From: Oikopleura dioica
Lineage: Eukaryota > Animalia > Chordata
NCBI GenBank assembly: GCA_907165135.1
Contig: OU015567.1
Span: 8,866,001-8,930,000, forward strand
Reading direction: 5' to 3'
Length of the DNA stretch: 64,000 bases
The stretch's first letter is position 1; each line of letters starts with the position of its first letter. The notes below the pieces were generated by a model. The model saw only the letters and a program-made list of their open reading frames with translations. It was not told where the DNA came from and did not search any database. Positions 4,396 to 64,000 of the stretch are shown here, piece by piece. A program made the translations under genes and the position numbers.

Positions 4396-4890
4396 TCAAA
4401 AGTCAGCATTGCCCTCTTTGTACTCTTTCATTTGCACAAGAAATCGTTCCTCTAGCAGTGACAGTTCTAATGAACAAAATTGATTGAAATAATTTGAAAA
4501 TGAAAATTTACCAGAAAGAAGATCAGTAATCGCATTTGTGAAAGCATCTTGAGGAGTGTAATCCTTCGTGGTTTGTACCCTGATGATTACTTTGTTCTCA
4601 AGAGGATGAGGGTTTTTGTAGCCGGCGAAAAGAACCTAGCAATATTTCGGCTAATCAACGAACTAATCCAGCAAGTGCTACCTTGGGATCTCGAAGAAGC
4701 TGAGTTTTGAGAATATTCCCCAAAGTGTGATCCTCTTTGTTCAATGTGAACAGGCACGCGTCTAAATTAAAATCTCAAGGTTACAGACAGCCAAGTTTCT
4801 ATTACCGGGAACATTAACTTCCTTCTTGACTTCGATCTTCTTCTCTCCATCATAAAGCATAAACGATTCGAATCGAGGAGGAGCATTCAT
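4396..4890 (-). CDS. POLR2J: RNA polymerase II subunit RPB11 (4 exons)
   Basis: Manually spliced: [21 protein letters not shown]... [75 protein letters not shown], near-identical to RPB11. Confidence 0.95.
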
Positions 4891-5048
4891 TTTTCTTCAC
4901 TTTCTTGAAAATTAAATTATTGAAGTTTGAATGGGAGATAGTTTCTTCAGCTGAATACTGCAAAAACGAAAAGATAAGATGGATAAACGAGCGAGTGTTT
5001 CTGAACACTTGGAACTTGGAATAACAGGTAGAGAAATAGAGAAATCGT

Positions 5049-7442
5049 TTAAAATGAAGAATGATCTTGGGAATTAGTGAAGACTGCGATTGGTAAAAAT
5101 CTGCTTTGAGTGGGCTTGATCTGAACATTTTATGTTAAAAACTATTGAAAAATTTCTATTGACCTGGAAAAATGAAATATTTTCGAACTCCTGGCCATCG
5201 ATGGAAACTCGCGCTGTAACTGACTTTTCCCTAGGCTTGAAGACGACGCGCGATGCAATTTCTCGACGCTCGCGGACACTCGCGTCATTATCTAATAAAG
5301 TATTCAATGATTTACAATGATGGGAAAAGTAGTTACCTTTTTTCTTCAATCCCGGGAGATTAGGACGCGTTCGCCGCCGGGAAATGAACTTCATTAATAT
5401 CGATGATTTCATCGGGTGGAATTCGAGTATTTTCAGCGTCTCTTTGATGCTGTGCTTTGTCTAAAATTTGGTTAGTACAGTATGAATGCGCAAGCCAACC
5501 TGTTTTTCGTCATCAGAAAGCCAGTACTCAACAACGACGTTGAGCTTTTCAGAAGATTGTATCCCGCCGTATCCATTAGCATTTGATGTATAAGGGCTAA
5601 AACAGATGTAGTTTCGTTAATAACACTTTTTTTCTCTACCTAGAAGTCGGACTCAAGGTAAATCGACCATCATCAGACTCGGAATCGTCTTCGGTTTCAA
5701 GGACAGCAAGTTCAACACAGAAGGGAATGACTTGATGCCCATCTGATTGGACATCCGATAAAGATAGCATTGCTTCGGATACAGGAAGATGTGCAACGTG
5801 ATTCGCGTCTATAATTATTTTTAAGCGAATTTTATCGGGTTTCCTACCCAGTTGAATTGACGATAACTTCTCAGAAATCCGGTTCAAGTCATTGGACTCT
5901 AACTCGCTATCAAGAAACAGTTTCTTGAAGGTCCCACATGTCTCGCCTATCTTCTTACAGAGATGGCTTTTTCCCACTTCGTCGAGAGGGATGAAAAAGA
6001 AGGAGATAAAGTTTTCGTTCATCTTTTTCGAGATTTTTTCGAAATAAAACTTGACTACGAAGTTGATATCTGGGGAGGTTCCGTGGACGCAGAACTTTAA
6101 CGGGTCTTCTGGAAGATTATCGGGATCGCTTTCGAGGAGGACTTGGAGGAAAGTTTCGAGGAGAAGTTGGAGTTGATCCGGCGCGACGTCGATGATTATG
6201 AAGGAGGAATTGATTGTTGACAATTTATCGATTAAACTTTCTGTAGCTTGAGATTGGACAATAACGAGTGTTGGTTTCAAGTTTTCTACTGCTTCGCTGA
6301 GACTTTGTTTTATCTTCTTTAGTTTTTCTGGATTCTTGTCGCACGTGATTGACCCGCGCGCTCGCGATGGAGGCTTTTCGCTGGTTTCTGGGAAATCATC
6401 TTGAGTAGTTGAGCTCTCGGATTTTGTTCGTTGATTCTCTTCGATAAGCCTTGGCATGGCTGATTTATTGCTACCGCTTCTTCGGCCTGATGAATAGGCG
6501 CCAATTGAGTTTCGAGCATGGAGGGAGCATTGTGAAGCGCTGTCAAAATATGGCTGGAGACTTGAATTCAAATGAGGACCAGTTGATGGTTTTAGTTTTT
6601 ACCTTGGTCTTGGGGTCGAGGCAATGCTCACACTATCGGCAAAGATTTCCTCTTCGTCCGAACTAACACCAAGATCGTCCAAATCATCGTACAACTGCAG
6701 CTCAGATAGATCCATCGTTTCGACTTGGTCCATGTCAATATCTTCTGGATTGATATGGGGGTTCTTTTTGATGACGCGTTCGAGCAGTTTGCTCAAAACA
6801 GCTGATTTGACCCTTGATGCCATGGAGAAAGAGTTTTTCATCTTTCTATCGTTCGGATTTGCTTCTTCGTCGTCGGAAGAATCCGATTGTGGGAAGTTTC
6901 CGTGGTCGTCTTCAGTTGGAATCGAAGAGACTTCTGATATCTCCAACTCGCCGATCTCATGGTGCTTTATGTCCCTCGAAATGCTGTCTGATTTGAAAAG
7001 TTTGATTGAAAAGCTTTTTGAAGGTGGAAGCTGAATAATTTCGTCCAAGTTTATTTGTCCTCGCGCGAGTGTTTTGTAACCAGGCACAGCTGCAGTTCTG
7101 TATCTCCGCTTTTTCTGCAGCGAAATATAGAGAATGTTTGAGCGGTTTTTCGTGAAATGCTGGTACTCGAAACTCATGTTCTGGGCGAACTCTTTCTCCA
7201 AAGAAGAAATGCAGATTTCATCCCTTAAATTTGAGTTCAAAATCATCAAAAGAACGTTTCGATTTTTACCCTCTTGCTTGAGGTCTTCTGCTGTTCGCCT
7301 GTAAAGTTATGAAGAAGGAGAGGCTGTCCCGCTTCTCAAGAGGCTTGGCAAGAGTGAGACGAGATATTTGAATGCAGCAGCTTCTTGGGACCGATGGGTT
7401 TGACAAAAAGTCCCCTGCGCGTTGTGCAAAAGTCCGACTCAT
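5049..7442 (-). CDS. PACS: Phosphofurin acidic cluster sorting protein (PACS1/2 family), multi-exon
   Basis: N-terminal FBR-like SVPRSCCIQISRL... QKKRRYRTAAVPGYKTLARGQINL; acidic LYDDLD..SSDEEE region; C-terminal RVSIDGQEFENISFFQ..RFLPIAVF matches the PACS VSIDGVEWNDVKFFQ..HFPVGLF motif. Confidence 0.9.
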
Positions 7443-12097: not shown

Positions 12098-12180
12098 GTC
12101 GTCATTTGCCCAAGTCGTCATCTGCCCAAGTCGTCATCTGCCCAACTTGGGCAAATGACGATCTTGGGTGAAAGACGATC
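12098..12180. repeat. 16-bp unit GTCGTCAT(T/C)TGCCCAA x3 followed by inverted copies (palindromic cluster 1)
   Basis: Units at 12098-12113, 12114-12129 and 12130-12145; near-perfect inverted unit TTGGGCAAATGACGAT at 12147-12162. Confidence 0.85.
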
Positions 12181-12814
12181 TGTAATTTAATTATTATTTA
12201 AAAAAAGCTTTTCTGTGTTTCACAGGAACGGACTCATCACTGTCCAATTCCGGAAGTCCGGTCCATATATTTTAATAGCAAAGACTTACTCAGTTGGGCC
12301 TCGATTTTCTAAAAAATATCCTGAAATTCAGAGTATCATACTCTTCCATACTTGGAACTAGCTTCCGGAGGAGATTCATAACTTCTCTCTACTTTTCAAA
12401 AGTTATTACTCAAGATCAAATGTGAACCAAGACTCGGCCCGAGTACCCTCGGTTCCACTGGGACTGTTCCACTTCGACATTTTAATTCAATTAATTCAAA
12501 CAAAATTTCATTCAAAGTTCAGACTAAACACAAAACCGACTTTAGCACCTTTTTCCGGCGCCAAGCGTCAGCAAGGCGTATAGGTACGCGCAGTTTATTA
12601 GAATAGGCTATTGTTGGCGAAAACTCATTACATCTTGCTTTACGAAACGATGCTAATGTCCCAGATGAAATTGTTTTCTCAACAAAAACTGTCGAATTCG
12701 AAATGATAAGAGGCCACCTTCCTGCGAGCAGTCTTCTTGCAAGTAGTCAGTTAAACTTTTATCTTGCTGCATTTTTCTTAAATTTTGAATTCAATTGCAT
12801 AGTCATTCACGCAG

Positions 12815-12859
12815 GTCGTCATTTGCCCAAGTTGGGCAGATGACGATCTTGGGCAGATG
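12815..12859. repeat. Second palindromic cluster of the same 16-bp unit
   Basis: GTCGTCATTTGCCCAA (12815-12830), G, TTGGGCAGATGACGAT, C, TTGGGCAGATG. Confidence 0.85.
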
Positions 12860-27449: not shown

Positions 27450-27737
27450 CTAAGTTACTTTCGATAACTGAGAATGACTTTAAATAAAATTGCGTCTTGA
27501 CTCACGTCTTAAATGCCAGAAGAGCTTAGTGAAATCTTCCCAAAATTGACGGGTCGTTTAAAATATCATTCTCGCTTTCCTGTTAGAGAAAAATGTCTTC
27601 TTTGGACGCTGAAGGACAAACTAAGATTGCTGAGGAGCAACCAACTGCAAGTACACGCATTTTTCTTGCAAAAATAATTCAACCGTCTTTTAGTAACAAC
27701 ACCAGCTGGGGAAAAATCCGATCTGGAACCAACGAAA

Positions 27738-28039
27738 TGCTAGCTTCGAAGACTCCCGCGTTGCCGTTTATGCATTGAGATTCGAGCGGGGGCGGCGCTC
27801 GCCGCTCGCGCTCCATAAAAGCTCAGAACGCCCGGGCGCTAACTCACTCCCGAGTAGGTCCGGGGCACGAAAATATACTTTGATTTTATTGTCCGCCAAG
27901 TTCACCGTCCCCGGAATAAAATAGATACAGAGAACTCTTCTCGACTCCTTCTTCAGCAGGCAGTAGCTTAGTTCAGTGAGGCGTAGTAAACTAGCCGAGC
28001 AATGCATCTTGGGGCTGCAAGGGTTGTTCGGAGCTAGTA
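27738..28039 (+). repeat. 5' LTR (302 bp)
   Basis: Runs TGCTAGC...GCTAGTA; no differences from 35623-35924 seen by eye; contains CATAAAA (TATA-like) and AATAAA. Confidence 0.95.
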
Positions 28040-28040
28040 T

Positions 28041-28050
28041 TGGTGTCAGA
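28041..28050 (+). other. Primer binding site TGGTGTCAGA (tRNA-Leu-type)
   Basis: Starts 1 nt after the 5' LTR; complementary to the 3' end ...TCTGACACCA of animal tRNA-Leu(CAA/CAG). Confidence 0.7.
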
Positions 28051-28757
28051 TTTGTCCTTGACTTATTGACTCCTTAGATTGGCTATCCTAAGCGAGTCAA
28101 AGTGGCTCTCCCAGCAAAAGTACGCTGTATTTTTGCTCGGATGGCCGCGGAAACTTTGTTTATCATAATTATAGTTACCCACTGGTCTAAGAAATCAAAG
28201 ACTCAGGATTAGGGAGCAGACGCGCAGAATAAGACTTATTCTGCGAGTACTGTGACGATCCGGCAGCAAAGTAAGTACAGTTGCTAGGATTACAAAACCA
28301 CTGTCGTCGATGCGCGAACCAATCACGGCGCGAGTAGCCCCGTGCCACGTCACCAGTGCACAGTGGCGACCCAACGGTCGCGCGCGAACCCGCTTGCGGG
28401 TGGGCAGCCTAACTGCCACGCAGTGCAAAAATTTAAAAATATTTTTCGCGCGGGCGATGTAGACCTTAGGCGAAATACTAGTTTTAGGTCCATCGAGGGC
28501 ACAACTCCAGTCGACATACAGTTGTAGCCCCTGGCCCCCAACAGAATTTTACGATAAATCAGTGAATTCTAAGCGCGCTCAAAGTCTGAAAATTCCTTTC
28601 GACTTAGAAATTTATTTTCAAATTAATTTTTCCTTCAAAATAATTTACACACGTCGCGGGTAGCTGGTCATAGTTTTTCTAGTGGTCTTCTTCGGTGAAT
28701 TTATTTAAGGACAGTAATTTTTCATGCCCTTACAGAGCCAACTTCCATTCATTCATC

Positions 28758-30133
28758 ATGACTGGAGCTAACTACGCATCATGGGATATGCAGACGCTTA
28801 CCATGGAATATAAACTTCGTGAACAACTTATTAAGAGCTACGAAGAGAGGCCTCCTGAGGATGACGAACATAAGAAAAAGTTCGAAAAAGCCAAGAAAGA
28901 TGAGGCCACTCTGAGAAAAGAATTGCTCAAAAGGGCGATGAGTGGTCAGGTCGCATCCTCTCAGCCCTCTGGGGGAGCGAAGCGAATTTTTACATCGATT
29001 CCCAGATTCTCACTAGTCATATGTCGAAGTTGGGCCGATTCACCGGTAGCAACAGCGAACAAACAGCGGCTTTTACCGCAAAAGTGAAAGGGATCATTGA
29101 CGCCTGTCCATCATTTACCTGGAAGAGGATCTACGGTGCCATAAAGGCAAACATCAGCCAGAATGTTCTAAAAACATTAGAAGCTTCGGATGTCAAGGAT
29201 TTTAAGACCTTCGAATCGGTTCTCAAAGAGCACTATGGCATACTTTCAAACACGTATCAACAGCTGGAAGACTGGCTTACCAAGTGTAAGCCAATCGGCC
29301 AGTCGTTCACGCATCATCAGTCAGAAACGGCTCAGGCCTTAGAGCCAATAATAGATTCATTCGAGAAAGAGTTGATTAAACTCAAAGAGGAAGCTGGAGT
29401 TAAAAACTACCAGCCTACCTTCCGCGACGGATTCTCCGCTCTCAGGATCCTGAAAGTGTTGCAAGCCGTTCGCCAGGATTGCGACCAGACATATTCAGCG
29501 ATCGTGATTGAGCTCAAAGGGTTCAAGACTGCTGAACAGATTGCGCAGCGCGCTACAAGCCTCTCTGTTCAGACAGCATTCAAATCGGTTAATACTGCCG
29601 AAGGGGGTGATGCGGCTTCTTCCAAGAAAAAGCGCAATAATCACCGCAATAAAAATAAAAATGATAAAAAGGATGAGATGAGCGGTGACGATCGCCAGTC
29701 CCAACCTCACAATAGTAACAATAACCGCGGACGTGGGGGTCATCGCGGTGGATCCTCCCGGGGCGGCCACAGCGGCCGTGATTCCAACGTCCAAGGCGGC
29801 TCTTATCACAACCACGGGGCGGGCCGCTCTAACGAGGGTCGCTCTAATGGTGGTCAACGAGGTGGTTCTCGAGGCGGTCAAGGGGGTCACCGTGGCCGCC
29901 ACTGGACACCAAGCATCAGGTCAGATGGTGTCTACGGTGGATCCAACAGCAATGCCAATGCCACCTTCACCGACTACGAGTACCAGCCATTGGGATCTTA
30001 TAACCATGAGCAAGATACTGCACCAACTGGTGATTACTACCAGAGTAGCCAGGCTTACTACGGCAATGATGGCTATAACTATCATTCGTACAATGGATCC
30101 TATTCTACCTTCGGTGCCAGTCCAAAAAACTAG
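28758..30133 (+). CDS. Gag (two overlapping frames joined by -1 shift, most plausibly at the G5 run 28971-28975)
   Basis: ATG at 28758 opens a helical ORF. The second frame is open from 28904 to 30133 with an LGRFTG (xPxFxG-like) capsid start, then RGG- and Y/Q/N-rich C-terminus. Confidence 0.8.
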
Positions 30134-30166
30134 GTGAGTCCGACATTGTTGATGACTTTGTCGGAC
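30124..30166 (+). promoter_or_regulatory. -1 programmed ribosomal frameshift signal (gag-pol)
   Basis: In-frame heptamer A_AAA_AAC directly before the gag TAG, 7-nt spacer, perfect 8-bp stem GTCCGACA / TGTCGGAC. The -1 frame is open into pol. Confidence 0.88.
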
Positions 30167-33100
30167 ACGTGAATCCTCAATTCAAACAATACTACCCAGC
30201 CAATTCCGGTCCGATGTACGTCCCCGTTTATTTTTCTGAGCATCCACGATTAATAATTAAAGCACTTGTCGATTCCGGAAGCTTTGCTACACTAATCAGT
30301 ATAAGACTTGTACGTGATTTAAAATTGACCATGTTTGCAACTACTCAGACAGTAAGAGGCATCGGTGGTGTTCAATCCAGAGCCCTTGGCAGAGTTGAAA
30401 CTGACATCAGGGTCGGTCAAAGTTATTGGCCGAAAGTGGAAATGTTTGTCCTTCCCGAGAATTGTATCAGTATTCCCTGTATACTTGGCCGAAGGCCCTT
30501 GAACGAGCGTTGCTTAGAAATCAACCAGGATCTCCAGAATCGAACGATCACTCTGCGCTCGCAGGGCAATCAGATTTCTAGAATTCCGTATATCAATGAT
30601 CCGAGAACTGAATGTTTGAAGGGACCCGGTGAGACTCATGTGGCTCTCGATTCAATGAATGCGACAGAGCTTGTGGAGCTTGTTCTGAAGGAACTTGGAG
30701 CCACAATCAATGTTGAAAACATCGAAGAGGCGCGCGCGGTCGCTATCATTCTGCTCAAACGCCGAGGAGCTTTCAAAACTCCCGATAAGCCAATTGGCAC
30801 GTACAAGGCTTATGAAGCAGAGATAAACACAATTCCCGGTAAGTCAAAGCACGTTCCCCAGTTCAAGGTGGCTGAGCGCCATATCGTTCCCATTAACAAC
30901 CAGATTACTAAGCTCAAGAAAATCAAGGTTCTCGTGCCTTCCGACAATAGTTGTGGATGGAATACTCCCCTTGGGGGCGTTCCAAAACCAGATGGTGGCA
31001 CTAGATTGATCCTTAACTTGAACTTAACCGTTAACCCCTTGTTGCAAAATTCAGACACTTTCGCGATTCCTAACATAGACGCTTCCATGGAGTTGCCGCT
31101 AGGCATACGCTATTTTGGCGTTATGGATATCGCAAATGGGTACTGGAATATAAAGGTCAAGGAGTCAGACCAGGTCAAACTTAGCATTTTTTGGAACGAT
31201 GAATGTCTTAAATTTACACGATTACCCTTTGGCTTGAAGAGCTCGGGGCACTTATTTGTCCGAGCTATCACCCACGCCCTGAAGGGCATGAAGTACAGGG
31301 AGAACGTGAAAATTTTCGTTGATGACTGTCTCGTGTTTGCGAGGGATTTTTCAACCTATTGTGCCGCACTCGCGGAGCTGCTGGAAAAAATCGAGGAATA
31401 CGGATTTGTCGTTGGAGGATCCAAGACAAAATTGTTATTTCCGGAAAATAAGTGGCTGGGCAGAATTGTTGACTCTAATGGCATGCGAAGCGATCCTAGT
31501 AACGTAGAGGCCATTGCCAAAATGCAGCCGCCTAAAACGTACAAAGATCTACAATCGTTGATCGGGTTACTGAATTGGTGCAGATCCTTTGCTTCAATCA
31601 AGCCCGGTGACACTGTCGGTAGTGCGAGCTTCTCCCACATCGTCAAAGACATCACCGAGCTCCTCAAGGTTAACAAGCCTAAACAGAAACTAGTCTGGTC
31701 TCCGAGGGCAAACAAGGCCTTTAATAATGTCAAAGCTAAACTTTCCTCCGATTCCATGATTTGGTTCCCCGATTATTCAAAGCCATTTATGCTCGTTACT
31801 GATGCTAGCGCAGCAGCCGCTGGATGGTGTTTGATGCAAAAAGTGGACGGTCGCGATCGGCTCATTCGAGTCGGGTCGCGCACCTTTACTGAGACTCAGT
31901 CAAGATATTCGGCCACAGAGCGTGAAGCTAACGCCATTATTATGGCAGTAAGTGACTGTAGAGTTTACCTTCTTGGCCGGAATTTTGTACTTAAAACGGA
32001 TCATAAAGCCCTAACCTTCATCGATTCCAAGATAGCCAAAAATGACAAATTGATCCGTTGGTGGAATTTACTAAGCGAATACAATTTCACTTGCGTATAC
32101 ATCGAAGGCGCCTGTAACACAGTGGCTGACTATTTCTCGCGCCCACCGGGCGTCGATATGTCCCGCCCAACTTACAAGGGTGAAAATGAGCCAGCTGGAA
32201 AATTTCACAAGTTCCACGCGTTCGATATTTACGTCCCATCTTGGTGTAAAATCGATGAAGTGCCCAAAATCGAATTCAACAGTGATGATCTTACCACAAG
32301 CGACAACGTCGTCGCCCACGTGTGCCATAAGGTCCCCACTGAAAAAGGTATTTTTGAGCGTATGTCCATCACCAGCGAACAAGCTCAGAACGAAGCGTGT
32401 CGCGCGGCGATAGACGCTCTGACTAATGACAGTACTATGAGATACGATAGACATTGCGAAGAAGCTGGTTATCTGTGGCGTCATTTCAATTCTCTATCTA
32501 TCTGCGAAAAGACCGGCGCCTTGCTGGTTAAGAGTAAAATTTACGTTCCGAGTACGCTGCGTCCGAGAATATTGATGGATTTCCATGATTATCGAAATCA
32601 CAGCGGCGCCGAGCGCATGAGGGACAATATGAGTCACCTGACTTGGCCCAATATGTCTGATGATATTAGTGCATATTGCAGGTCCTGCATTTGTAGCCAC
32701 TCAAAAGGGGGTCGTGGACACCATTTGGACCCTGGGTTCTTACCGACCGAGAAAGGCAAATTTCCGTTCCAACTTGTTTATGTAGACTTTATCGAGCTCC
32801 CTGTCTCTCGCGGAGGGCTTCGTTATTGTTGCACTATGGTAGATTCGTTTTCAAAATACTTGATCGCCGTTCCGACTCGTCGAGCGCGAGCAGTTGACGC
32901 TTGCCAGGCGATAACGGAGCATTTGCTCGATCATTACCCTCATCCCGAAGTCATTTCGAGTGATAGGGGCACTCATTTCACCAGTTCATTGAATGCCACT
33001 TTCAGCGCAATGAACGGCTTGAAATGGCGTCACCATATCGCATTTAGACCTCAGGCGTGTGCACTCCTAGAAAGTAGGCATCGTGAGTTGAAGAATGTCA

Positions 33101-34071
33101 TTTTTATCGTTACTAACTCCTCCAACCTCGATTGGCCTAGTGTCATACAACGCGTCGTTTACATAATGAACGCCTCGAAAAATGCATCTACAAAAACTGC
33201 TCCGTTTGAAGTTGTTTTTGGTAGACCCGCAAAGTTAAGCGCTTTTGACAAGGACTTTGACCCGCCATCTGGTGAAAACATTCCTGAGTTTTTACGTAAC
33301 AGAGCGCGCGTCACTGATCTTCTCTTCAAAAAGATAAAAATTTGTCAGAAGATGGCCGACGATGTGGTCCGCTGGGGCCGGCCTCGTCATCACCCAGAAA
33401 TCCTCGAGCCAGGAGATGAAGTATTTCTCAAGCGAGAGCACTCAGCCGTCGCTAAGTCAAAGCATTTGAAATGGCTCGGTCCTTACGTAGTTGTCCGAAG
33501 TAACGGACATATCGTACAACTCAGCGATCAGGCCGGTCACCTTGACTGGTTCCACAGATCGGATATTCTCAAGAAAGTTCCGCGCCCTCCTAGGTTAGGA
33601 GCGGTGCCGTACTTCCCTTGCATGAGAGTACCTCTGCCCCAAACGTTACCGACGCCACCAGTCACGCAAAAACCGCTGATTGATAGCGCCCCTGACAATG
33701 TAACTACTCTTCCTGAGCTCAGAAATAGCGAAAATCCGATTTCCGAGGCGAATCGCCCTGAGGCAAGTGCTGGCGAAAATTTGACCCCTGGCGAGAGCCC
33801 GATTGGGTGCTCGCCTGGACCGTCAAACGACAATAATCTAAATCCGCAGAGTTCTGGCAATGCTAGAAGCTCTACATCTAGAAAACGTAAATCACCTAGT
33901 GAGCCCTCAACAGATTCAAAGAAACCAAAAAGTTGGCCCGACTCGCGCTGCGAGAGAGCCTCCACTAGATCACAGTCGGCAAAAGCAGCAGAAATGCTAC
34001 GTGAGGATGAAATTTATGCTCAGCAGCTCCAAGATGCTGAGCGAAGAAGGTCGTCAAGAAAGCCACTGTAA
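30130..34071 (+). CDS. Pol polyprotein: aspartic protease, reverse transcriptase, RNase H, integrase, low-complexity tail
   Basis: LVDSGS; MDIANGYWNI, RLPFGLKSS, FVDD; TDASA, YSATEREA, TDHKAL; H-x3-H...CRSC, VYVDF, SDRGTHF, ESRHRELK, WLGPY. Confidence 0.97.
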   Translation, partial: LGESDIVDDFVGHVNPQFKQYYPANSGPMYVPVYFSEHPRLIIKALVDSGSFATLISIRLVRDLKLTMFATTQTVRGIGGVQSRALGRVETDIRVGQSYWPKVEMFVLPENCISIPCILGRRPLNERCLEINQDLQNRTITLRSQGNQISRIPYINDPRTECLKGPGETHVALDSMNATELVELVLKELGATINVENIEEARAVAIILLKRRGAFKTPDKPIGTYKAYEAEINTIPGKSKHVPQFKVAERHIVPINNQITKLKKIKVLVPSDNSCGWNTPLGGVPKPDGGTRLILNLNLTVNPLLQNSDTFAIPNIDASMELPLGIRYFGVMDIANGYWNIKVKESDQVKLSIFWNDECLKFTRLPFGLKSSGHLFVRAITHALKGMKYRENVKIFVDDCLVFARDFSTYCAALAELLEKIEEYGFVVGGSKTKLLFPENKWLGRIVDSNGMRSDPSNVEAIAKMQPPKTYKDLQSLIGLLNWCRSFASIKPGDTVGSASFSHIVKDITELLKVNKPKQKLVWSPRANKAFNNVKAKLSSDSMIWFPDYSKPFMLVTDASAAAAGWCLMQKVDGRDRLIRVGSRTFTETQSRYSATEREANAIIMAVSDCRVYLLGRNFVLKTDHKALTFIDSKIAKNDKLIRWWNLLSEYNFTCVYIEGACNTVADYFSRPPGVDMSRPTYKGENEPAGKFHKFHAFDIYVPSWCKIDEVPKIEFNSDDLTTSDNVVAHVCHKVPTEKGIFERMSITSEQAQNEACRAAIDALTNDSTMRYDRHCEEAGYLWRHFNSLSICEKTGALLVKSKIYVPSTLRPRILMDFHDYRNHSGAERMRDNMSHLTWPNMSDDISAYCRSCICSHSKGGRGHHLDPGFLPTEKGKFPFQLVYVDFIELPVSRGGLRYCCTMVDSFSKYLIAVPTRRARAVDACQAITEHLLDHYPHPEVISSDRGTHFTSSLNATFSAMNGLKWRHHIAFRPQACALLESRHRELKNVIFIVTNSSNLDWPSVIQRVVYIMNASKNASTKTAPFEVVFGRPAKLSAFDKDFDPPSGENIPEFLRNRARVTDLLFKKIKICQKMADDVVRWGRPRHHPEILEPGDEVFLKREHSAVAKSKHLKWLGPYVVVRSNGHIVQLSDQAGHLDWFHRSDILKKVPRPPRLGAVPYFPCMRVPLPQTLPTPPVTQKPLIDSAPDNVTTLPELRNSENPISEANRPEASAGENLTPGESPIGCSPGPSNDNNLNPQSSGNARSSTSRKRKSPSEPSTDSKKPKSWPDSRCERASTRSQSAKAAEMLREDEIYAQQLQDAERRRSSRKPL

Positions 34072-34235
34072 AATAATTTTTCTGTATTTTAGTCGATTAA
34101 AGTGTACCCTCCTGTTTAGGGGTAGTACTATGATAAACAGTTGGATAAACTTTGTGCTTTTTATACAGTGATTTTACATGTACTGTACATTCAGCTCATC
34201 GTGCTTACCGTGTAACTTAACATCTGTTCAGTTAG

Positions 34236-35475
34236 ATGGTTCGTATCTCGGAAATGACCGACGCGCTCGACGTCGGCCTCGACTGCGACACGATGGAACT
34301 CGACACTGGTTCATTGATGAACCCCACTATGTCCTCGGAGGCCGAATCGAACGAAAGTCCGGAGCAGGGGGTCTCAGAAAACCCTGAGCTCGCTGATTCA
34401 GGTATTTCTAGCCCTCCGAAGGTTCCTCCACTAAAAATCCCTTAGCACCTGAGGCGCCCGCGGTTGCGGCTTCCTCAGCGTCAGATCCGGCCGCGGCGTC
34501 GACTTCTGCGCCGTTGGCCCCGACAAACGCAGTGGCCACTGCTTCCCAGACTCACCAAACATTGCACCCACCGCGCGACTGGGAGGACTTGTGGAGTAAC
34601 CTCGATGGACGAGAGTTCGAACTCTCCATCTACTCCGATAACGCCGCGGTGGGCAAAAACTGCTCAACGAGCTCATCTCCAAGTCCAAGCAGCAAGGCAA
34701 AGTGCTGGTCATCAATGACGTGGTCCAGCGGACTCAAGGTGGAGTCGACCGTGTCAAGTACCTCCAGCAGATATTGCTCTCTGAGCTCGCCGAGCACTCT
34801 GACCGGTTACACTTAGCCGAATTTCGGGACGGTCCGGCAATGAAAAGCATCGTTGCCCTCGCTCAAACATTGTTTGCGAGTGGTTCCAAGTACGCCGAAG
34901 TCGCCCACTTCATTGTGAAGTCGAACTTGGAAACAGCGAAAAATCGCCAGAATAAATACCGTGCCGGACCGCCGCCAACACCGGTTATCACTGTCTCAGA
35001 CTCCCCACCAGCTCCTCGGATCGTTTCAATGAGAAACAATTTGTTGGCGTCGCCAACGGTCGCTCCTGCATCTGCCGCGGTTGCGGTGGGTGCTGGAGTA
35101 GCGCCAACCACATTGGCAACTGTCACTGGGGCAGACTGGCCCGCTCCCTCATCGGCACCAGCCGGTTGGGGTGCCCCATCGACATCCACAACTCCCTGGC
35201 CCGTGCCGGTTACCACATCAGGCTTGGTAGCCCCGCCGCGGCCAGCTACTCCCATCCAGGCCCAGGGTGTCCCACTTCAGCGTCAAAATGAATTACTCCG
35301 TGCTCAAGTGGACGCCTTGATTAGTACGATCAATGCTTACACCGAGGACGCCAGTGCTCCGCAAAATGGCAACCGGAGCGACCGTGGATCTGCTCGAGGC
35401 CGAGGACGTGGCCGAGGCCAGCGCCGAAATCAACGAGGCCCATATGTACGAGGCTCCTTCCGTGGCCGCTACTGA
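34236..35475 (+). CDS. Retrotransposon ORF3 of unknown function (spliced; non-env-like)
   Basis: ATG follows TTAG. GT-AG intron 34402-34445 joins the frames. A -1 shift at A5 34655-34659 links to the 257-aa ORF ending in an RG-rich tail. Confidence 0.65.
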
Positions 35476-35614
35476 GCCGTCATCGCAGCTGCCTTCACCT
35501 AGTCCCTGCCAAATTTCACCTCGATTGCCTAGATCTTCACGAAGCGCTGCCATTTTTCACCTGCCCTGCTAAATTTACACTGTCGCTGCTAGTAATTCCC
35601 GCCGAATTCGATGC

Positions 35615-35621
35615 AAGGGGG
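35615..35621 (+). other. Polypurine tract AAGGGGG
   Basis: Purine run ending 1 nt before the 3' LTR. Confidence 0.65.
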
Positions 35622-35622
35622 T

Positions 35623-35924
35623 TGCTAGCTTCGAAGACTCCCGCGTTGCCGTTTATGCATTGAGATTCGAGCGGGGGCGGCGCTCGCCGCTCGCGCTCCA
35701 TAAAAGCTCAGAACGCCCGGGCGCTAACTCACTCCCGAGTAGGTCCGGGGCACGAAAATATACTTTGATTTTATTGTCCGCCAAGTTCACCGTCCCCGGA
35801 ATAAAATAGATACAGAGAACTCTTCTCGACTCCTTCTTCAGCAGGCAGTAGCTTAGTTCAGTGAGGCGTAGTAAACTAGCCGAGCAATGCATCTTGGGGC
35901 TGCAAGGGTTGTTCGGAGCTAGTA
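35623..35924 (+). repeat. 3' LTR (302 bp)
   Basis: Same sequence as the 5' LTR; the ORF track gives identical 79-aa antisense ORFs at an offset of 7885 bp. Confidence 0.95.
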
Positions 35925-36290
35925 GAAAAATCTGAGCTTGGCGAGGAGCCTCAAATTTGCGTCTGTCCTCATTGCAAGTATCAGGTGAGCAGAATCGATA
36001 ACCGGATGATGAGCAAGGTCGATTTTAGGGCTATTCCTTTGTCGAAAGAGACCCTGGTTGCTGCATCTTTCTGATGTGTACTGGCTGCGTCTGCATGGGC
36101 TGCGTCGCTGGTTGCTGTCTCATGCCCTGCGTTGTTACTGATTTCAAGGATGTCACTCATTACTGTGTCAACTGTGGCTTGAAGATCGGAACACATCCGA
36201 TTTTCTTCTGTTGAAATTCTGATTCAATACACTTTTCTTAAAATAATTCTTTGCAAAATTGTCTTTTATCGAATTTTCTTTAGAAAAATC

Positions 36291-37375
36291 ATGGCTGAAG
36301 TGTTGATACCGGATCAGCCTGTTGAACCGCGCGTGGTCCGCCGAAACCGGCCGGGTTCGAAACGCTCCGAGTGGTGCAAATGGCCCGATCAGCAGTTTAA
36401 TCAAATCGAATCAATCCACGCGCAGCAGATGCTCATACAGCAGCGCATTCGCAATAATAAAAACAATGTCGAGTTTATTCTTACGCCGCCAGAAGGAGCG
36501 GATGAAGATGTTTGGAAATACGAGCACTTGCGTCAGTTTTGCCAGGAACTCAACGGACTAGCCACGCGATTACAGGCTGAATGTTCGCCGGAAACTTGCA
36601 ACCAGGTAAATATCACGACGCCTACTCATTTAAAAATTTATTTCGTAGATGACTGCTACTGATCAATGGATCTTTCTGTGTGCCGCGCATAAGTCCCCTA
36701 AAGAATGCCCCGCCATTGACTACACCCGTCACACCCTTGACGGTGCCGCTCTTCTTCTCAACTCATCCAAATACTTTCCCTCGCGAGTTAGTATGAAGCA
36801 AACTTCTGTCGCGAAATTAGGCTCTATCTCTCGGCGAATTTATCGAATCTTCTCTCATGCTTTCTATCATCACAAGCCAATTTTCCTGGATTTCGAGGTA
36901 GAATATACCTTTTTTCGCTTACTTACTGTATGTTCAAGAACCAAACGCAACTTTGCCGACGATTCAGCAAGTTCGTATTGACTTACAATCTCATGCCAGC
37001 CGAAACTCTCATCGTCCCTGTTGACTCTCTCGAAGCTGGACTTCCTACTGAAGCTGCTGTTGAAAAAGCCCCGGTAATTGACCGTGCTTTATTCAGTATT
37101 TTTAGCCTTTCTCAATTTAGGAATTTGAAGGCTACGCTACTGCAACAATCGCCCGAGCAACGGAGCCTGTAAAAGGCGAAGGAGGGGCTGAACCTAATCT
37201 TGAATCACCGTCTAGCTCCGTCATCTTGGACTCCGGAAGCTCTGGAATTTCACTTATCACCCCAGCGGAAGAGGCCTCGGTTGAAAATTCCATCGGGGAG
37301 TTGTCCCTCGACGACACCGCCACCAACTCCGGTGAGCAGACCGTCATCGAAAGCGAAGACGTTTCCACTGCATAA
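36291..37375 (+). CDS. MOB4: MOB kinase activator-like 4 (phocein)
   Basis: RRNRPGSK; [26 protein letters not shown]; [34 protein letters not shown]; FPSRVS; acidic C-terminal extension. Confidence 0.96.
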
Positions 37376-56000: not shown

Positions 56001-59000
56001 GAGTCGGCTCTGTAACGGACTGTAAATCTTCTTCGAGCTGCAAGAATGCGCCATTGTCGAAGTCTCCTTCATTGAAGAGGATAGAATCATCATAAACAGG
56101 GAAGTTGTTTTGATCAACCATGAACATGACAACTTGATTTAGCTCGAAACAAACGACTGGTTGTTCAATAATTGATGCTCCAAGTCCTTCTCGGGGGGAA
56201 ATTTGATCAGCTTGTCTTCGTTTTCGTCGAGATGAAATGAGTAAATCAACAAGTTCAGAAGGATCAGGGTTGTATAAACCTAAGAACTGCTCATTCTCCA
56301 TCGAAACGATAAAAATTGACTGATCTAATTCTTCACTGTTTTCGCATACGACAGATTCGATATTCAGACCACCGATATCTGTTTCGATTCCGTCGATAAC
56401 AAATGTCGGTTCATCTCCATCAAGCGGATCTGGACACTTGAACTTGAAAATTTCTTCATTTGCTCTTCTGCAGTTGATATCACAGGTTTCGTCGAGAGGA
56501 CTAACTTTGCATTCACAGATTCCAAGCTGAGTATTGACACCGACAAAGGTACCCTCTGGACACCCGGAATTTCGGCAGTCTTCTTCAAGCGCATCTTCTG
56601 TTAGGCATTGACCGTTTGACTTTCGGAACTGATCGGAAGCGCAGATTTCATAAATTACTCGTCGACAATCACCTTCCTCGCCATCTTCTTCGGAAGCTTT
56701 ATAACCTGTTCGACATGGGCATTTTCCACTTGATGGTTGGAACACGCGGTTTTTGCCATAGCACTGACATTTGTTCATTCCTTCTTGTTTTTGTTCAGCA
56801 AGGTCGCCACAAGGAGAACATTCAAAGGATCTTTCATAATTTGAAAACGTATTTACAGGGCAAAGCTCGCAAACTTCTTCAAATTCTAAGCCGAGATTGT
56901 CAGTCTCATTCAGATTGTAATATGTTCCTTGAGGACAAGGTATCGGCTCGAGAGCTGCTTCTGGACAAAAGTAGCCATCAGGACACTTGATAGTGTTCGT
57001 GTTATTCGCGATCGTTACGTTCCATAAGTCAGTAATTGCTGGTGAGAAACAAAGAACACCACTTCGGCATGGTAAACAAGACTCTGTTACGCGAGTGTCT
57101 AGCTCCCTGTAATAACCGGGTGGGCAAGCTTGGCAAGTATCATCTTCCGATTCTCTCTTTGACTCTTCAAGCTCAAAGTATCCGGAAGAACATCGGCAAG
57201 GCGAAGTGTTATTTGCAGAAATACCGAGATCTTCGCCTGTAAATTCATCATAACCACATTGTCCGTCTTCTGGACAATATGTTCCGGGAGGACAAGTTGT
57301 TGGGAACGCTGAACCTTCCGGGCAGTAATAGCCAGCTGGGCACTTTTCGATCTTGTTTGTTCGGTCACAGAAGTATCCTTCTGGACAAAGTGCTGGTTCG
57401 GTAGAATTTAAATCTGCCACAGTTTCAGTTTCAACGCAATAAGAGCCTTCTGGGCATCCGAGCTGATAGTCCATTGCTTCATCGGGACAGAAATATCCAG
57501 GAGGACAAGGAGTGCACTCCAATATATCTTTCGAAGCTGTCTTCGCGAGGAAAAATCCTGGTAAACATGGTTCTTGAAAGTCCATGCTATCTGATCCTGT
57601 CTCATTAATGAAATAACCGGCTTGTGCTGGGAATCGCTCGGGCTCAGTCATTCCTTCATGGGGACAGGTGTGACCGACTGGACAAGGCTTACATGCACCA
57701 GCTTCAGATTTTCCTGATGTTTCGTCATTGTATGTACCTTCTGGGCAAGGAAAGAATTTTCCGTCTTCGCACCAGCCTCCTTTTCCACACTCAGCTACTG
57801 TTTTGGCGCTTTCAGGACAATATTCACCATCCAGACAAGGTTTGCAATCAGCGTCACTTGGCTGACCGGTACCTTTGATGAATTCTCCGTCATCACAGAT
57901 TTGAGTTTCGTTTGTGCCCTCAGGACAGTAGTACCCATCTGGGCAGATCTTGTCGGGATTGTCTTGATTTGGAGTTGACGAACCCCCGTAGCACATCGTT
58001 CCGCCATAACAATCTCCTTCGATAAAACCGTTGTTACAGTACTTTCCTGCTGGACAAGGCTTACAATCGCTCTGACGACCCATATTATTTGATTCATCAT
58101 TGTATGTTCCTGGCTCACAAAAGGACGAGAATGACGAAGAACTGCAGAATTTACCAAGAGGACACTGCTCGGGGAAAGCAGTTCCGGCCACGTCGGCCAT
58201 CGAACCCTGTGGATTTGGAAGACAGTCTCCTTGGCCGGCAGCTGATTGATATCGAGTTTCTCGGCATTCTTGGTGTCTTCCAGCTTGGCAGGAGCTACCT
58301 GGGCGACAGATAAAGTTCATTGGATCTGGAACTGTAATGAGTGTATCATCAGTTACATTTTGTGGGTCGCAATAGAAGCCATCTTTGCATTTAAAGCTGT
58401 TCAGTGGATATTCCAACGAGTTCATCGATTTATACGGACAGTAGTTGCCAGCAGGGCAAGGATCACACGAATCCGCAGATTCAAGCAATTTTGCCTGACC
58501 ATGACGGCCAGGAGCACACGGTTTCGGAAGAACAGTTCCGGCTTCGCAATAATATCCCCTCGGGCACTCGCCATTGCCGTTTTGGTCAAATGATGGTTTT
58601 CCTGATGAAGCACCGCGCCTGCAGAAGTAACCAGCCTCACAAATATCTATGTGATTCTCACCCTCGCAGAAGTGACCCGCTGGACACTGTTTACATTGAC
58701 TCGACTCATAAAGACCAGTGACATTAGAATAAAATCCAGGAGAGCATGGGATTGGGTTTTCAAGTCTAGCAGGACAATAATGACCGACTGGACAAACTTC
58801 TGGCTCGTGTGTTCCAAGTTCTTGGCAAAAATAACCTCTTGGACATGGCTTGCAGTCAGATTGAGCATATTGATCTTGGTAATATCCACGAGCGCAGATG
58901 TCAAGCTGCTGTGCTGCTGATCGTTGATGACATCGGAATCCTTTCGGACATGGGAATCCAGTGTATCCAAGGTCGTATGCTTTGTCGATACAAGCTTGTC

Positions 59001-62000
59001 CGTGAGAATATGTCTCATTCGTTCTTAGGCCATCGCAATCAAACGTAGGGCTAAATGGATCTGTGCTATTGTCATCATTTGGTGCTGGAAGATATGCTCC
59101 TTCAACGCATACAAAGCCCTTCTCGCAGCGTGTCTCAGTTATACTCTCAACATCACCAGAATCACCAAATCGGCAGTAATATCCAGCTGGGCAGGGCTTG
59201 CATTCATCAACTGAAACAGCTCCAGCTTTGCTTGATCTTGACGTTCCTCTTGGACATGGATGATAACCAGAAGATCCCGCCTCACAATAGGCACCTCCGG
59301 GACACTCTTCTTCGAATTTACTGATAGAACCAGCTGGACAGTAGTATCCTTCCTCGCAGAGTTTTTCAGTCGGATCGTCATTTGTCTTTCCGTCACCTGT
59401 AGAATGGCCTTCACTCGGACAGTAGTAACCACCCCAGCAAGGTGTGCACTCAGTTGGATCAGTTGCACCAAGAACTCCGTTGTAACTTCCAGGTTCACAC
59501 ATGGTCTCGGAATAGTCACCTGTTTCTGGAGGGCAATAGAAGCCAGCTGGGCAAAGCGCAGGAACAACAACTCCAGTTTCACCTGAGCCATCGTTGTTCA
59601 CATAGCAGTAAAAGCCAGCGGGGCATTTCTTACAGTTTGCCTGACCTCTTTGATCTTGATATACACCACCATCAGAGTCGCCAGCTTCGACGTTGCACGC
59701 AATTGGCATTTCACTACCTTCTGGGCACATAAATCCTTCGGGACAAACGAGTTGATTTCCTCGGTCGCTTCCAGCAGGGCAGTAGTAACCAGCCAAACAA
59801 GGTTGCATAGTATCTGGAGTGTTTCCATATCCAGGACAGAAGAAACCCTCGGTACATTGTTCGCAGTCGCCTTCGTCTGAGAGACCTTCTTGAGGTCCGT
59901 AATGACCCGGTGGACAAAAAACTGGATGCGATGTTGCTGGTTCACAATAACTACCGATAGGACAACTGATAGCGTCTGATGATACACGCATTCCGGTTGG
60001 GCAGAAAAGTCCTGGTGGACAGGGATTCTCTGTGAAATTTTCGATTCCCCCTTCAGAGCAGTCGTATCCAGCTGGGCAACGAATAGGAGAAGCACCAGCA
60101 TTATTCTCTGGTAAGTTTGGACAATAGAATCCTTGAGGACATAGTTGCTCGATTGCAGATCCTTTTGGACAATAATGTCGCGCTGAGCAAAGGTTATCCG
60201 CTGTGACATCAGACATTCCTGAGTTAGGGCAGACGTATCCTCTTAGACACGGAAAGCAATCCAATTCTTTTGATATTCCATATGGTCGCGGATTATATGT
60301 TCCTGGTTCGCAAGGAATTTGTATGAGACCACCAGTGCAAATATATCCTGGTTCGCAAGCGTAATCCTCAATATCAATAATACCAGAATCATTGCAAGCA
60401 TAACCATCAGGACATTCGATACATTCACTTGCTTTTCCATGTGGCATGTAAGATCCTGGGTCACAAGGAGTTTGCCTTGCACCGTCGCACCAATGTCCAG
60501 GCTCACACTCAGCTGATGATGAGGAAGGAAGGCAGGCAGTAAAATTAGCGGTATCAAATGGATATTCAGCAAAGCCACCACTGTTGCAAACAAAGCCACC
60601 AGCACAATCGCCAGTTGTGTCCCAAGGTTCTGCACCGTCACAATATTTACCCAATGGGCATTCAAGGCATTCACTATTTCCTTCTCGAATTTTATATGTT
60701 CCTTTCGGGCACTTTTTGAGTGGTTCATCCTCGGAAGCCATTTTGCAAGTAAAACCTTTGGGACAAGGAAGAGTTCCACCTTCGCGAGGATCACAGAACT
60801 TTCCATCTGGGCACTTTTGACAGTCGGGCTGACCGGTCTCCTTGTTATAAAATCCTGGTTTACAATCTTGTTCATCTGCTGACCCTTCTGGGCATTGCAT
60901 TGTTCTCCCGCACTTATTCCTAGCTGATTTGCTTCCAGCTGGGCAATAATAACCTTCTGTACATTCTTCACTCACGTCGGTTTGTCCGTCGGTCTCACAA
61001 TAAAATCCAGGAGTACATTCTGTGCAGGAAGGATCGTCGTTGTATTCTGCGGCATTGTAGGAGCCCTTTTTGCATGGACTCTTAGAAGTTGAAGTGCTTC
61101 CTTTTTCGCAGTAATGACCTGCTTCACAAGGATTTTGATCGAAAGGAAGAGACGGTGGCGCTAGCTCCAGAGGATCAAATGAACTTCCAAATTCATCTAT
61201 AGCTCCATACAACCTTGTTGAACCTTTGATATCACAGTTGAACTTTGCTGCGCATTCAGTTGTAGCATTTGGTTTTATATCAATTCCAGTTTCACCGCAA
61301 AAGTGGCCAGCCGAACATGGATAACAATCATCCTCGTTCTCAGCACCACGTCGATCTCGATAAGTTCCAAGAGGACATTTGATGGGATAAGTTATTTTCG
61401 AAACATCAGTATTATCGCAGAAAGTTCCGGGCTCACATCGACCTGTCAAAAGGAAGCCTCCAAGCTTAGTCGTTGATGGATTTCTTTTTGTTGCACCAGA
61501 AATGCAGGTGTATCCACTCTCACAATCTTCCATGTCAGCTATCGCAGCAATACCTCTATCAGGACAAGCTTTGCCATTTGGACATCTATCGCAGGAACTG
61601 ACATTAACTTGCGCTTGAAGACCTAGCCAGGCGCCTTTCGGACACAAGGTCTGTTTAGCATTAGCGCAGTAGCTACCTTCTGGACATGGATCTGCAAACG
61701 GATCAGTGAAGTTTTTCACGCAGAGGAAACCATCAAGGCACATTTCGCATTCTGTCTGACCCTGTGATGGCTGGAAAGTGCCTTCAGAGCATTCTTTAGC
61801 TTCTGAACTGTCATCTGGACATTTTGACCCCGCAGGACATTGTTTGAAATCTGGTCGGTCCGCTTCTTTATCACAGTAGTATCCACCAAGACATGGGGTG
61901 TCGATATTGTTCAATGTGCCGCCGAGGCCAACTGCATCACAAACTTCATTTTCACATGGAGTGCACCCATCGATACTATCTTCAGATATGCCAAAGTTTG

Positions 62001-64000
62001 ACGTGCCTCTATTACAGCTGATCGGATATCTGGAGATAGTCGCATTACAGAAGTGACCCTCAGGACATGGAAGAATGACAGATCCTATCTTGCATGCATC
62101 TCCTGCGCCGCAATCAACAGCATTTGTTCCATCACACTCATAACCTGGCGGGCAAGCGGTAGGAAAACGCGATCCCGACGGACAGAATGATCCAACAGAG
62201 CAACTTTCTTTAGAAATATCCGTGTTTCCACCTGCACAGTAGAAGCCGGCATCACAATCAAGAGCATTGGAAGTATCGATTGCTCCTTCTTCTGGACAAA
62301 TTTTACCAGCAGGGCATGGGATGCAATCCTCAAGAGAACCTCCAGTCGTGTAGCTATTATAGGTTCCAGCAGGACAAAGAAGAGCTCCAGCGCTAGTACA
62401 ATATTTTCCTTCTTCACAGTCTGTCACATTATCACCGCCATTACACTTGTAGCCTTTGTTACACGGAGAGCATTGAGTTGAACCGACTTCGATAGAAAAT
62501 TGATTTTCTGGACATTCAAATGTAACTCCATTATTGCAAGCATTTCCTGCTGGGCAAGCTTCTTGAGCTTCAACTCTACTTCCCTCTGGGCAGTAGCTTC
62601 CATCGCCACAATTCTCCAGGTTATCTGTTCCTTGACCTGGGATGTTGCAATAAGACCCTTCAGGACATGGTTTGCAATCATCGGCTTGAGCTGCTCCTTG
62701 TGATGGGCCATATTTTCCAACAGGGCATAGATTTTGACCCCCAGGCGGATCTGAAATAGCACCATAACCAGGACAGTACTTTCCGTAAGGACATGTTTCT
62801 CTGATCGATTTTCTCTGCCCGTTCGAGTCAGCATCTGCGTAGAAGCAAGTAAAACCGCTTTCACAGGGATCACAACTTGCTTGCCCTGGTCCAGAATAAT
62901 GAATAGGCTCACATTCCAAATAGATTGAACTTCCGACGGGACATCTGAAACCTGTCGGACATTGTCTTTCAGTTCCTCTTGACGATCCTTTTGGACAGTA
63001 GTATCCTGGATTGCATACATACGATGAGCTTATGTCTGAAAAACTAGCAAGAGGTGGATCCCCATCAACGCGTTGTGGGCAATAATATCCCTCTGGACAA
63101 TCGTAGCATTCATCCGCTGATTTGAGTCCGAGACGATCAGTCCAAGTTCCTTCAGGACAATGCGCTTTTCCGACACCAGGCGCGCAGAAATATCCAGCTG
63201 GGCATCTCACAGTAGCATTCGCACAATCGTAGCCTGCCGGACACTGGCTATCAGCAGTCATTGCTTCATATGGACAATCTCCTGTACAATCGATGCAGTC
63301 ATTTTCAGTTTTGGCACCTTGAGATGGATTATAGGTTCCCGGAGGACATGGTTTTCGTTGATTTCCATCTTCACAGAAGTATCCAGCGGGACAGATAGCG
63401 GCATCATCGATGTATCTACCGGATGGCTGAGCAGCATCACCAAGCTGTGTGCAGAAGTATCCAGGCTCACATTCATTGGTTGTATTGAGTATGCCGGTTC
63501 GATCGCAGAAGTAACCTTCTGGGCAAGTAAAACAGTCCTCTTCGGTGACGCCATATTTAAGATCTCTGTAATAGCCAAGATTTGAGCTTCCACAAGTATT
63601 TTCTTCGCCGTTCTGACAGTATTTGCCTTCATCACAAGGCTCTGGAATAATTTGCTGATTATCACACATGAAAGCATCGGGGCAATCAATGCACTCGCTA
63701 GATCCTTCAGTTGGAGAATACGTTTTAGCATCGCATGCTTCTTTTTCTCCGGTGTTACTGCAGAAACTTCCCGGCGGACAAATGATTGAAGTTGCTTCGT
63801 AATTCGGCTGAGAATCAGGACAGTAGTAGCCGTCATCACAGATGCTTGAAGAACTTTGAGTTGTGCCGACACCTGGACAATATCGTCCATTACCACAGTT
63901 TTTACAGGCGACTGACTCATCTGATTGATTGAACTGGTCATTATATGTTCCCATATTACACGGTTGCGGGTAGACTTCAGTGGAATTACAGAAATGACCT
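50064..64000 (-). CDS. Giant type-I membrane protein: dozens of GCC2/GCC3 (ephrin-receptor-like) Cys-rich repeats, single TM, long cytoplasmic coiled coil; 5' end lies beyond the window
   Basis: Frame is open from the window end to 51312; repeated CPAG(Y/F)YC / CPEGTY motifs; TM WIFIFSFIGLLLFIILLCLFIYWL near 55735-55805; introns 51263-51311 and 50281-50322; stop at 50064. Confidence 0.9.

Follow-up and report, generated by a model that had tools for sequence, protein, structure and literature searches.

Does the third open reading frame of a young Oikopleura dioica retrotransposon, which sits in the place of an envelope gene, encode an envelope protein, and does it need an internal intron to be read at all? 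These questions are raised by a 64,000-nt stretch of contig OU015567.1 (assembly GCA_907165135.1, positions 8,866,001 to 8,930,000 of the forward strand; hereafter "the window", to which coordinates refer unless another element is named), in which an LTR element of 8.2 kb (27738-35924, plus strand, as are all of its features given below) carries an open reading frame downstream of pol (ORF3, 34236..35475). A first-pass annotation had read ORF3 as a non-envelope gene opened by a 44-nt intron and a 1-nt shift, and as a candidate silencing suppressor. Overall, our analysis indicates that a gene structure with splice and frameshift is likely artefactual, and that ORF3 is a real accessory gene of non-envelope type.

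The element displays Ty3/Gypsy hallmarks, i.e., LTRs, a target-site duplication, a primer-binding site (PBS) and a polypurine tract. The 5' and 3' LTRs (27738..28039 and 35623..35924) are 302 nt each, identical to one another and bounded by TG...TA ends, and are flanked by a 4-bp target-site duplication (27734..27737, right copy 35925-35928). A PBS-like TGG motif (28041..28050), which we take to be of tRNA-Leu type, follows the 5' LTR, and the polypurine tract lies at 35615..35621. Contigs from DNA runs X1 and X2 (two of the four DNA runs) contain the empty-site joint 27735-35926, so the insertion is polymorphic. Together with the identical LTRs and the 4-bp duplication, this confirms that the element is young, and the order of its pol domains is that of Ty3/Gypsy elements, both as first annotated. 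At its site, the element interrupts an apparent coding exon (27590-27737 / 35925-36214). It belongs to a LITAF-like zinc-ribbon gene that is clustered with others of its kind, is matched by PF10601 on its downstream part, and is likely disrupted by the insertion. A Mob1/phocein-family host gene (PF03637) is found just 3' of the element (36291-37375), and the window also holds a 16-nt tandem unit with an inverted copy ~650 nt away (12101-12853), presumably MITE-like ends, as well as, in minus orientation, a long gene of Cys-rich repeats (56955-63897).

Within the element, gag (28758..30133) has an RGG-rich tail and is broken in the window copy at a G run (28971-28975), with an uninterrupted counterpart of 453 aa in a related element, L001. 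The pol frame, 1330 aa from stop to stop (30079..34071), contains protease, RT, RNase H and integrase in this order (Pfam), lies in the -1 frame relative to gag, and ends at 34071 as previously described. The end of gag is conserved as AAAAAAC-TAG, with pol in the -1 frame, in both elements (window 30124-30133; L001 ~1622-1631), and from its sequence is likely a ribosomal frameshift site. The best Pol match is 86% identical over residues 250-1180 and belongs to a cluster that holds the O. dioica records CBY12840.1 and CBY32766.1, with more distant relatives (P0004-P0010) at 31-40% identity. As the nearest records are O. dioica gypsy Pol, the element is likely a Tor. Scans of viral contigs with ORF3 and pol revealed no relatives, and tRNA and Rfam searches gave no matches. 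One record of DNA run X5 (record 28) is an internally deleted copy that lacks 31391-33986, i.e., most of pol, and keeps gag and ORF3, possibly as a non-autonomous derivative.

In the window, ORF3 is split into three overlapping frames (34236-34445, 34412-34816 and 34642-35475), which the first-pass annotation joined by a GT..AG intron of 44 nt (34402..34445) and a shift at a run of five A (34655-34659). Both the GT..AG pair and the run exist. However, a public 413-aa protein (P0001), with 12 differences over 409 compared residues (97% identity), runs without interruption and includes the amino acids that the supposed intron would encode; this interval is coding sequence in P0001 and its relatives, so the intron is not supported as a biological one. 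Likewise, P0001 and three of the four DNA runs (X1, X2 and X5) read without the shift, and the argument that full-length RNA must escape internal splicing falls with the unneeded frame-rescuing intron. Frame-shifting GT..AG intervals of 36-55 nt are so common in pol (spanning 250 of 515 sampled positions, or 49%) that the one at 34402-34445 is explained by chance; equally good intervals also span the A run and the gag break. The GC content of the claimed intron is 45%, vs. 28-32% in three host intron stretches.

What the breaks have in common is that all of them are homopolymer runs (28971-28975 in gag, 34433-34437 and 34655-34659 in ORF3), the lengths of which differ from the window in X1, X2 and X5, from two studies. 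Outside pol, the window element has 31 runs of five bases and none longer, vs. 13 and seven, respectively, in L001 (Fisher p 7e-4), a pattern of homopolymer under-calling. Against this reading, three runs of six are kept in its pol. Moreover, five of the window's run lengths (at 28293, 28441, 28970, 34118 and 34432) recur in the remaining DNA run, X3, which has both forms at 34654. It is also very fragmented, with two further letters missing in the gag-pol region, and may thus represent error-prone reads behind the assembly. Given this agreement, the breaks would be due either to a systematic error of the reads that also affects X3 or to genuine lesions, and we consider the ORF3 breaks as likely homopolymer read errors, or else lesions of this one copy.

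A gene structure in which ORF3 must both lose 44 nt by internal splicing and shift by 1 nt thus appears highly improbable, even though removal of the interval would restore the frame, X3 carries the window form at one ORF3 break and partly at the other, and L001 has an in-frame GT..AG interval of 45 nt at the same place. Such conservation is also seen by chance, with GT..AG pairs kept at both ends at 4/55 and 2/18 control positions in similarly diverged coding DNA. An optional in-frame splice at 34402-34445 is possible, if weakly supported, and is unneeded to open the frame. More generally, this locus is a caution that homopolymer errors can pass for short introns.

An exhaustive HMMER search retrieved six representatives of the ORF3 family at E-values of 1e-10 or better, including P0001, while a word-index search gave only two proteins and missed known members. 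We considered seven diverged full-length members of 408-426 aa, namely P0001, P0063, P0091, P0092, P0095 and the ORF3 of L001 (P0102) and of a further element, L002 (P0103), and excluded the fragments P0093 and P0094 from motif counts. Besides P0001, five full-length clusters or loci share 24-45% identity (varying with the alignment). Family records named O. dioica are CBY12839.1, CBY32766.1 and CBY15547.1, and a close relative among the O. dioica records is 86% identical in pol and 39% in ORF3. The gene lies 3' of pol in all three elements whose DNA extends that far (window, L001 and L002), with a spacer of 164-207 nt (the DNA of L003 and L004 stops within pol). L002 is the most distant member (pol 58% identical), and its ORF3 (L002 positions 4099-5340) is permuted, its middle being long, basic and rich in Pro, and its helical core being C-terminal.

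Evolutionarily, four pieces of ORF3 compared between the window and L001 (38-54% identity) gave pS values of 0.57-0.86 and pN values of 0.35-0.48. The RT and integrase regions of pol are much more constrained (pN 0.07-0.10), and this dN/dS-type comparison, which had been proposed as a check, reveals constraint on ORF3 rather than neutral decay. The gene is uninterrupted and constrained in seven diverged members, and we conclude with little doubt that ORF3 is a real non-envelope gene needing no internal intron.

A hint of how ORF3 may be expressed comes from the pol-ORF3 spacer (34072..34235), which ends in an acceptor-like AG (34234-34235), so that the ATG at 34236 directly follows GTTCAGTTAG, exactly as first noticed. 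The AG abuts the ATG in both the window and L001, and L002 has TTTCAG 10 nt upstream, i.e., an acceptor-like AG precedes the start codon in 3/3 elements examined. The supposed likeness to host genes of the window extends to an AG near the start, but not to its exact placement, since at two host starts the AG lies 1 and 7 nt before the ATG and does not abut it. The conserved AG makes a subgenomic ORF3 mRNA, spliced or trans-spliced, likely on sequence grounds. In Tor3a elements, a splice was mapped by RACE from the 5' LTR to an acceptor upstream of the third ORF, with a GA donor near the gag start, while internal promoters are described for Tor3b and Tor4b (Henriet et al., 2015, PMC4402516); in the element studied here, an acceptor-like AG is conserved. 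Near the gag start, a block of 20 nt is identical in the window and L001 (within 28724-28771 and 230-277, respectively) and opens a short upstream frame (MPLQSQL) that overlaps the start of gag. This block could act as a first exon or as a signal for splicing or translation, and it is tempting to speculate that in the window and L001 alike, a GA inside the gag start codon would link the MPLQSQL frame to ORF3 in phase.

The spacer is 74% identical to that of L001 (120/162 aligned bases) despite near-saturated synonymous sites, and a predicted hairpin within it shows a two-sided change in only one of 30 pairs (two-sequence alignment). A 60-nt spacer block (34099-34158) also occurs in L001 and in a related element detected through 3-5 loose-ended RNA reads of run X13, and may be a promoter or an RNA element. 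Coverage of ORF3 by the four RNA runs is scant, with one 236-nt contig in X8 (35375-35610, depth 2) and 9, 24 and 1 reads in X12, X13 and X9, respectively, and no joint was reported among them; none of these reads is 95% alike, which points to another population or element. Over pol (31383-31964), a very small number of related-element reads from X12 and X13 are mostly first mates on the plus strand, which suggests antisense RNA under the convention of most stranded libraries.

The ORF3 protein is mostly disordered by prediction, and the model suggests the following architecture: a compact core between disordered arms. The N-terminus (34236..34430) is acidic and predicted to be disordered, with a net charge of -11 to -18 over the first 70 residues in all seven members and a conserved hydrophobic-acidic motif near 34260-34283. 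The conserved folded core (34574..34968, ~130 aa, predicted to form two short strands and five helices) is directly followed by a stretch resembling a SUMO-interacting motif (SIM; PVITVSDSPP, 34981..35010). Further downstream come a P/A/G/S/T linker in which three Trp motifs recur at intervals of exactly 10 residues (35134..35208), a short predicted helix with a heptad pattern, likely a coiled coil (35275..35340), and a basic RG-rich tail (35383..35472). The peptides quoted in the first-pass annotation are all present in the sequence.

The core was modelled on L001 with a 12-row alignment (pLDDT 89.2, pTM 0.78), whereas a single-sequence fold of the whole P0001 was poor (pLDDT 43). Foldseek returned no match to the core at E 0.001 or better in PDB and BFVD, and VIA-align no significant one among 48,161 representative chains. 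The helices of interferon-gamma were considered (VIA-align Z 6.8, rmsd 3.0, 66 aligned residues) and dismissed as a common helical arrangement. At the sequence level, Pfam searches with ORF3 members gave nothing above E 0.03, a PDB profile search had a best E-value of 0.31, and the ESM Atlas yielded no usable feature matches, with structure rows at TM 0.42 or lower. The core fold, as modelled, is thus unmatched in PDB and BFVD, although such an absence leaves a new fold unproven. A homodimer prediction for the core scored 0.00, but did not use the alignment and carries no weight either way. A structural match to an envelope- or gag-derived protein, which would have spoken against the non-envelope reading, was sought and none was found; the best E-value against the element's own gag was 0.12.

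Could ORF3 nonetheless be a highly diverged envelope protein? Its position is that of env, Tor3 and Tor4b elements have been published as env-bearing, and the Tor3a env, as presented there, is without the motifs of the others (PMC4402516). The protein itself speaks against this reading. The best 19-residue Kyte-Doolittle window of the window protein (1.47) corresponds to an Ala/Val/Gly linker that is not kept in relatives (0.61-1.21), and by this measure no signal or transmembrane stretch is found in any of the seven members. P0001 has a single Cys and no RxK/RR furin site, no Cys is invariant among members, and the core of this protein, predicted to be mostly disordered, has no significant match to a viral fusogen. 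The absence of a signal peptide, membrane helix and Cys pattern reported at first pass thus extends to the family, and an envelope identity is hardly credible.

Looking across the family, only two modules are kept in 7/7 members, namely the acidic-hydrophobic N-terminus and the core. L002 has part of the core at its C-terminus (hhalign E 1.3e-5, probability 80.6), with neither Trp array nor RG tail nor SIM match; since it keeps only the two shared modules, these are the oldest parts, and the Trp and RG modules do not represent the ancestral function. P0095 similarly lacks the spaced Trp array and the RG tail, and misses the SIM rule. A SIM-like match (a V/I core followed by acidic or Ser/Thr-Pro residues) occurs within 15 residues after the core in five of six canonical members and not in the permuted one (chance 0.003-0.02 per protein). 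Three to five Trp spaced 9-12 residues apart are present in 4/7 members by a strict rule (shuffle p 0.009 or lower), with a fifth member near, and are missing in 2/7, while an RG-rich tail after the short heptad helix, resembling the RGG tail of the element's own gag, is found in 5/7. The Trp and RG motifs therefore do recur in relatives. L001 has four tandem GW-type motifs produced by a 33-nt tandem repeat, the flanks of the Trp motifs are 21% Pro, and an adjacent Gly is found in only one of the three window motifs. As the Trp, SIM and RG motifs were spotted post hoc, and the sequences are related, they are to be taken as leads only. A clathrin W-box and a PTAP late domain were also considered, and neither is conserved.

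With the SIM-like motif added to the Trp and RG motifs, the idea of a silencing suppressor remains plausible, and we tentatively favour, as the main function of ORF3, a soluble accessory protein that would shield the element from SUMO- and Argonaute-based silencing. Its mRNA would be spliced onto the AG just before the start codon, either in cis from the 5' LTR as in Tor3a, or by spliced-leader (SL) trans-splicing after transcription from an internal promoter. The SIM-like motif would then dock on SUMOylated silencing complexes, the Trp motifs, given their 10-residue spacing, would fill the Trp pockets of Argonaute (or of a deadenylase), the coiled coil would multimerise the protein, and the RG tail would tether it to the element RNA. 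Several lines of published work make the targets reasonable: SUMO is required in piRNA-guided transposon silencing in flies (10.1101/533091), O. dioica is reported to have several Ago proteins and one Piwi (PMC4402516), the Argonaute sites of TNRC6 have two Trp ten or more residues apart (PMC9262622), and a functional SIM of ICP0 reads IVISDS (PMC3174244). On the other side stand the members without SIM match, Trp array or RG (L002 and P0095), the Pro content and scarce Gly of the window Trp flanks, the rarity of TE-encoded anti-silencing factors, and the fact that tandem duplication by itself, as with the L001 repeat, gives a regular Trp spacing. In its boldest and less probable form, this counter-silencing reading would make the Tor ORF3 a new-fold envelope replacement misfiled as "env", which decoys both arms of small-RNA repression through a SUMO motif and Argonaute hooks, with hook number growing by tandem duplication in an arms race.

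Other functions have to be weighed against the same evidence, and the readings are not mutually exclusive. The main rival, unlikely yet by no means negligible, is a CERV- or Rev-like regulator made from a spliced mRNA, in which core and RG tail would bind unspliced RNA in the nucleus and act through export or a splicing block. The conserved acceptor at ORF3 implies splice signals within the full-length RNA, the conserved spacer could serve as a response element, and precedents come from Tor3a, where the ORF3 mRNA is spliced from the 5' LTR and Tor3a-1 RNA is described as mostly nuclear (PMC4402516), and from CERV of the gypsy-type element Cer1 (PMC10309623). However, we found no sequence or fold link to CERV or Rev, the Cys loop of CERV has no counterpart in a protein with one Cys, the RG tail is missing in two of the seven members, and the spacer hairpin shows next to no paired change. 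An activator of the LTR or of an internal promoter in trans, with the acidic N-terminus activating and the core binding DNA or a cofactor, would agree with the universal presence of these two modules, L002 included, and SIMs are common in viral transactivators, e.g., ICP0 and IE2; as the core matches no DNA-binding fold and P0001 has no clear basic NLS cluster outside the RG tail, we regard it as rather improbable. The same holds for a particle-associated or granule factor that would co-assemble with Gag and RNA, or route particles within or between cells as a stand-in for an envelope. ORF3 occupies the env slot, its RG tail is gag-like, and envelope-less cell-to-cell spread is reported for fly elements (PMC11952523), but a hydrophobic anchor is absent in all seven members and neither similarity to the element's own gag nor a capsid or fusogen fold was detected.

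Non-envelope third ORFs as such are already known from rotifers (PMC5408684) and Cer1. Neither the ORF3 family nor its fold or set of motifs turned up in the literature searched, although the supplement of PMC4402516 may already show the sequences, and three motif look-ups in PMC13524379 supplements gave nothing. At minimum, the model would imply a new folded domain in an accessory gene. Beyond this, the family offers a concrete counter-silencing candidate whose host is a chordate that can be injected and breeds quickly; its named motifs lend themselves to knock-out, and members with and without them occur naturally.

Among known systems, plant VANC is likewise a TE-encoded accessory protein proposed to act against silencing, with no sequence relation to ORF3; such factors are described as rare in a review, with none known against piRNA pathways as of 2019 (PMC6719617). 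The HSV-1 ICP0 motif SLS-4 shares with ORF3 a V/I core followed by acidic or Ser-Pro residues (PMC3174244), whereas ORF3 is unrelated to ICP0 in sequence and lacks a ligase domain of the RING or any other type, judging by the absence of a Cys pattern and of Pfam matches. As in GW182/TNRC6, Trp lie ~10 residues apart in disordered, G/S/T/N-rich sequence (PMC9262622, PMC4615383), but ORF3 has only 3-5 motifs, in Pro-rich flanks, which are absent in two of seven members, and no UBA or RRM; the Trp motifs are candidate hooks. Bdelloid rotifer elements have lineage-specific third ORFs in the env position as well, which are described as recognisable enzymes (GDSL, DEDDy) or transmembrane proteins, unlike this ORF3 with no match in Pfam, PDB or BFVD (PMC5408684). 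CERV of C. elegans Cer1 likewise serves a gypsy-type element as an accessory protein that is no envelope and is unlike retroviral proteins, and its mRNA is spliced, as is likely for ORF3; yet CERV exceeds ORF3 in size and has a Cys loop and three structured domains, where ORF3 has a single core plus linear motifs (PMC10309623); no homology between the two was found.

A close parallel is with the Tor elements themselves, which share a gypsy-type gag-pol with a third ORF, near-identical LTRs, target-site duplications of 4-5 bp and polymorphic insertions (PMC4402516). The Env of Tor3b and Tor4b (F- or gB-type) has a signal peptide, a C-terminal transmembrane helix, seven conserved Cys and a furin site, none of which is seen in ORF3 (hydropathy in seven members; Cys and furin site in P0001). 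In contrast, the mRNA of the Tor3a "env" uses a splice acceptor located 5' of the ORF, and its product is presented without the Tor3b/4b Env motifs (PMC4402516). The chances that the element belongs to the Tor3a group are about even or slightly better, and ORF3 may be the very gene published as "Tor3a env". If so, the label looks wrong for a protein without envelope hallmarks, and, as Tor3a makes up half of the "env"-bearing Tor elements, their reading as infectious retroviruses may change; if not, ORF3 represents an undescribed type of third ORF.
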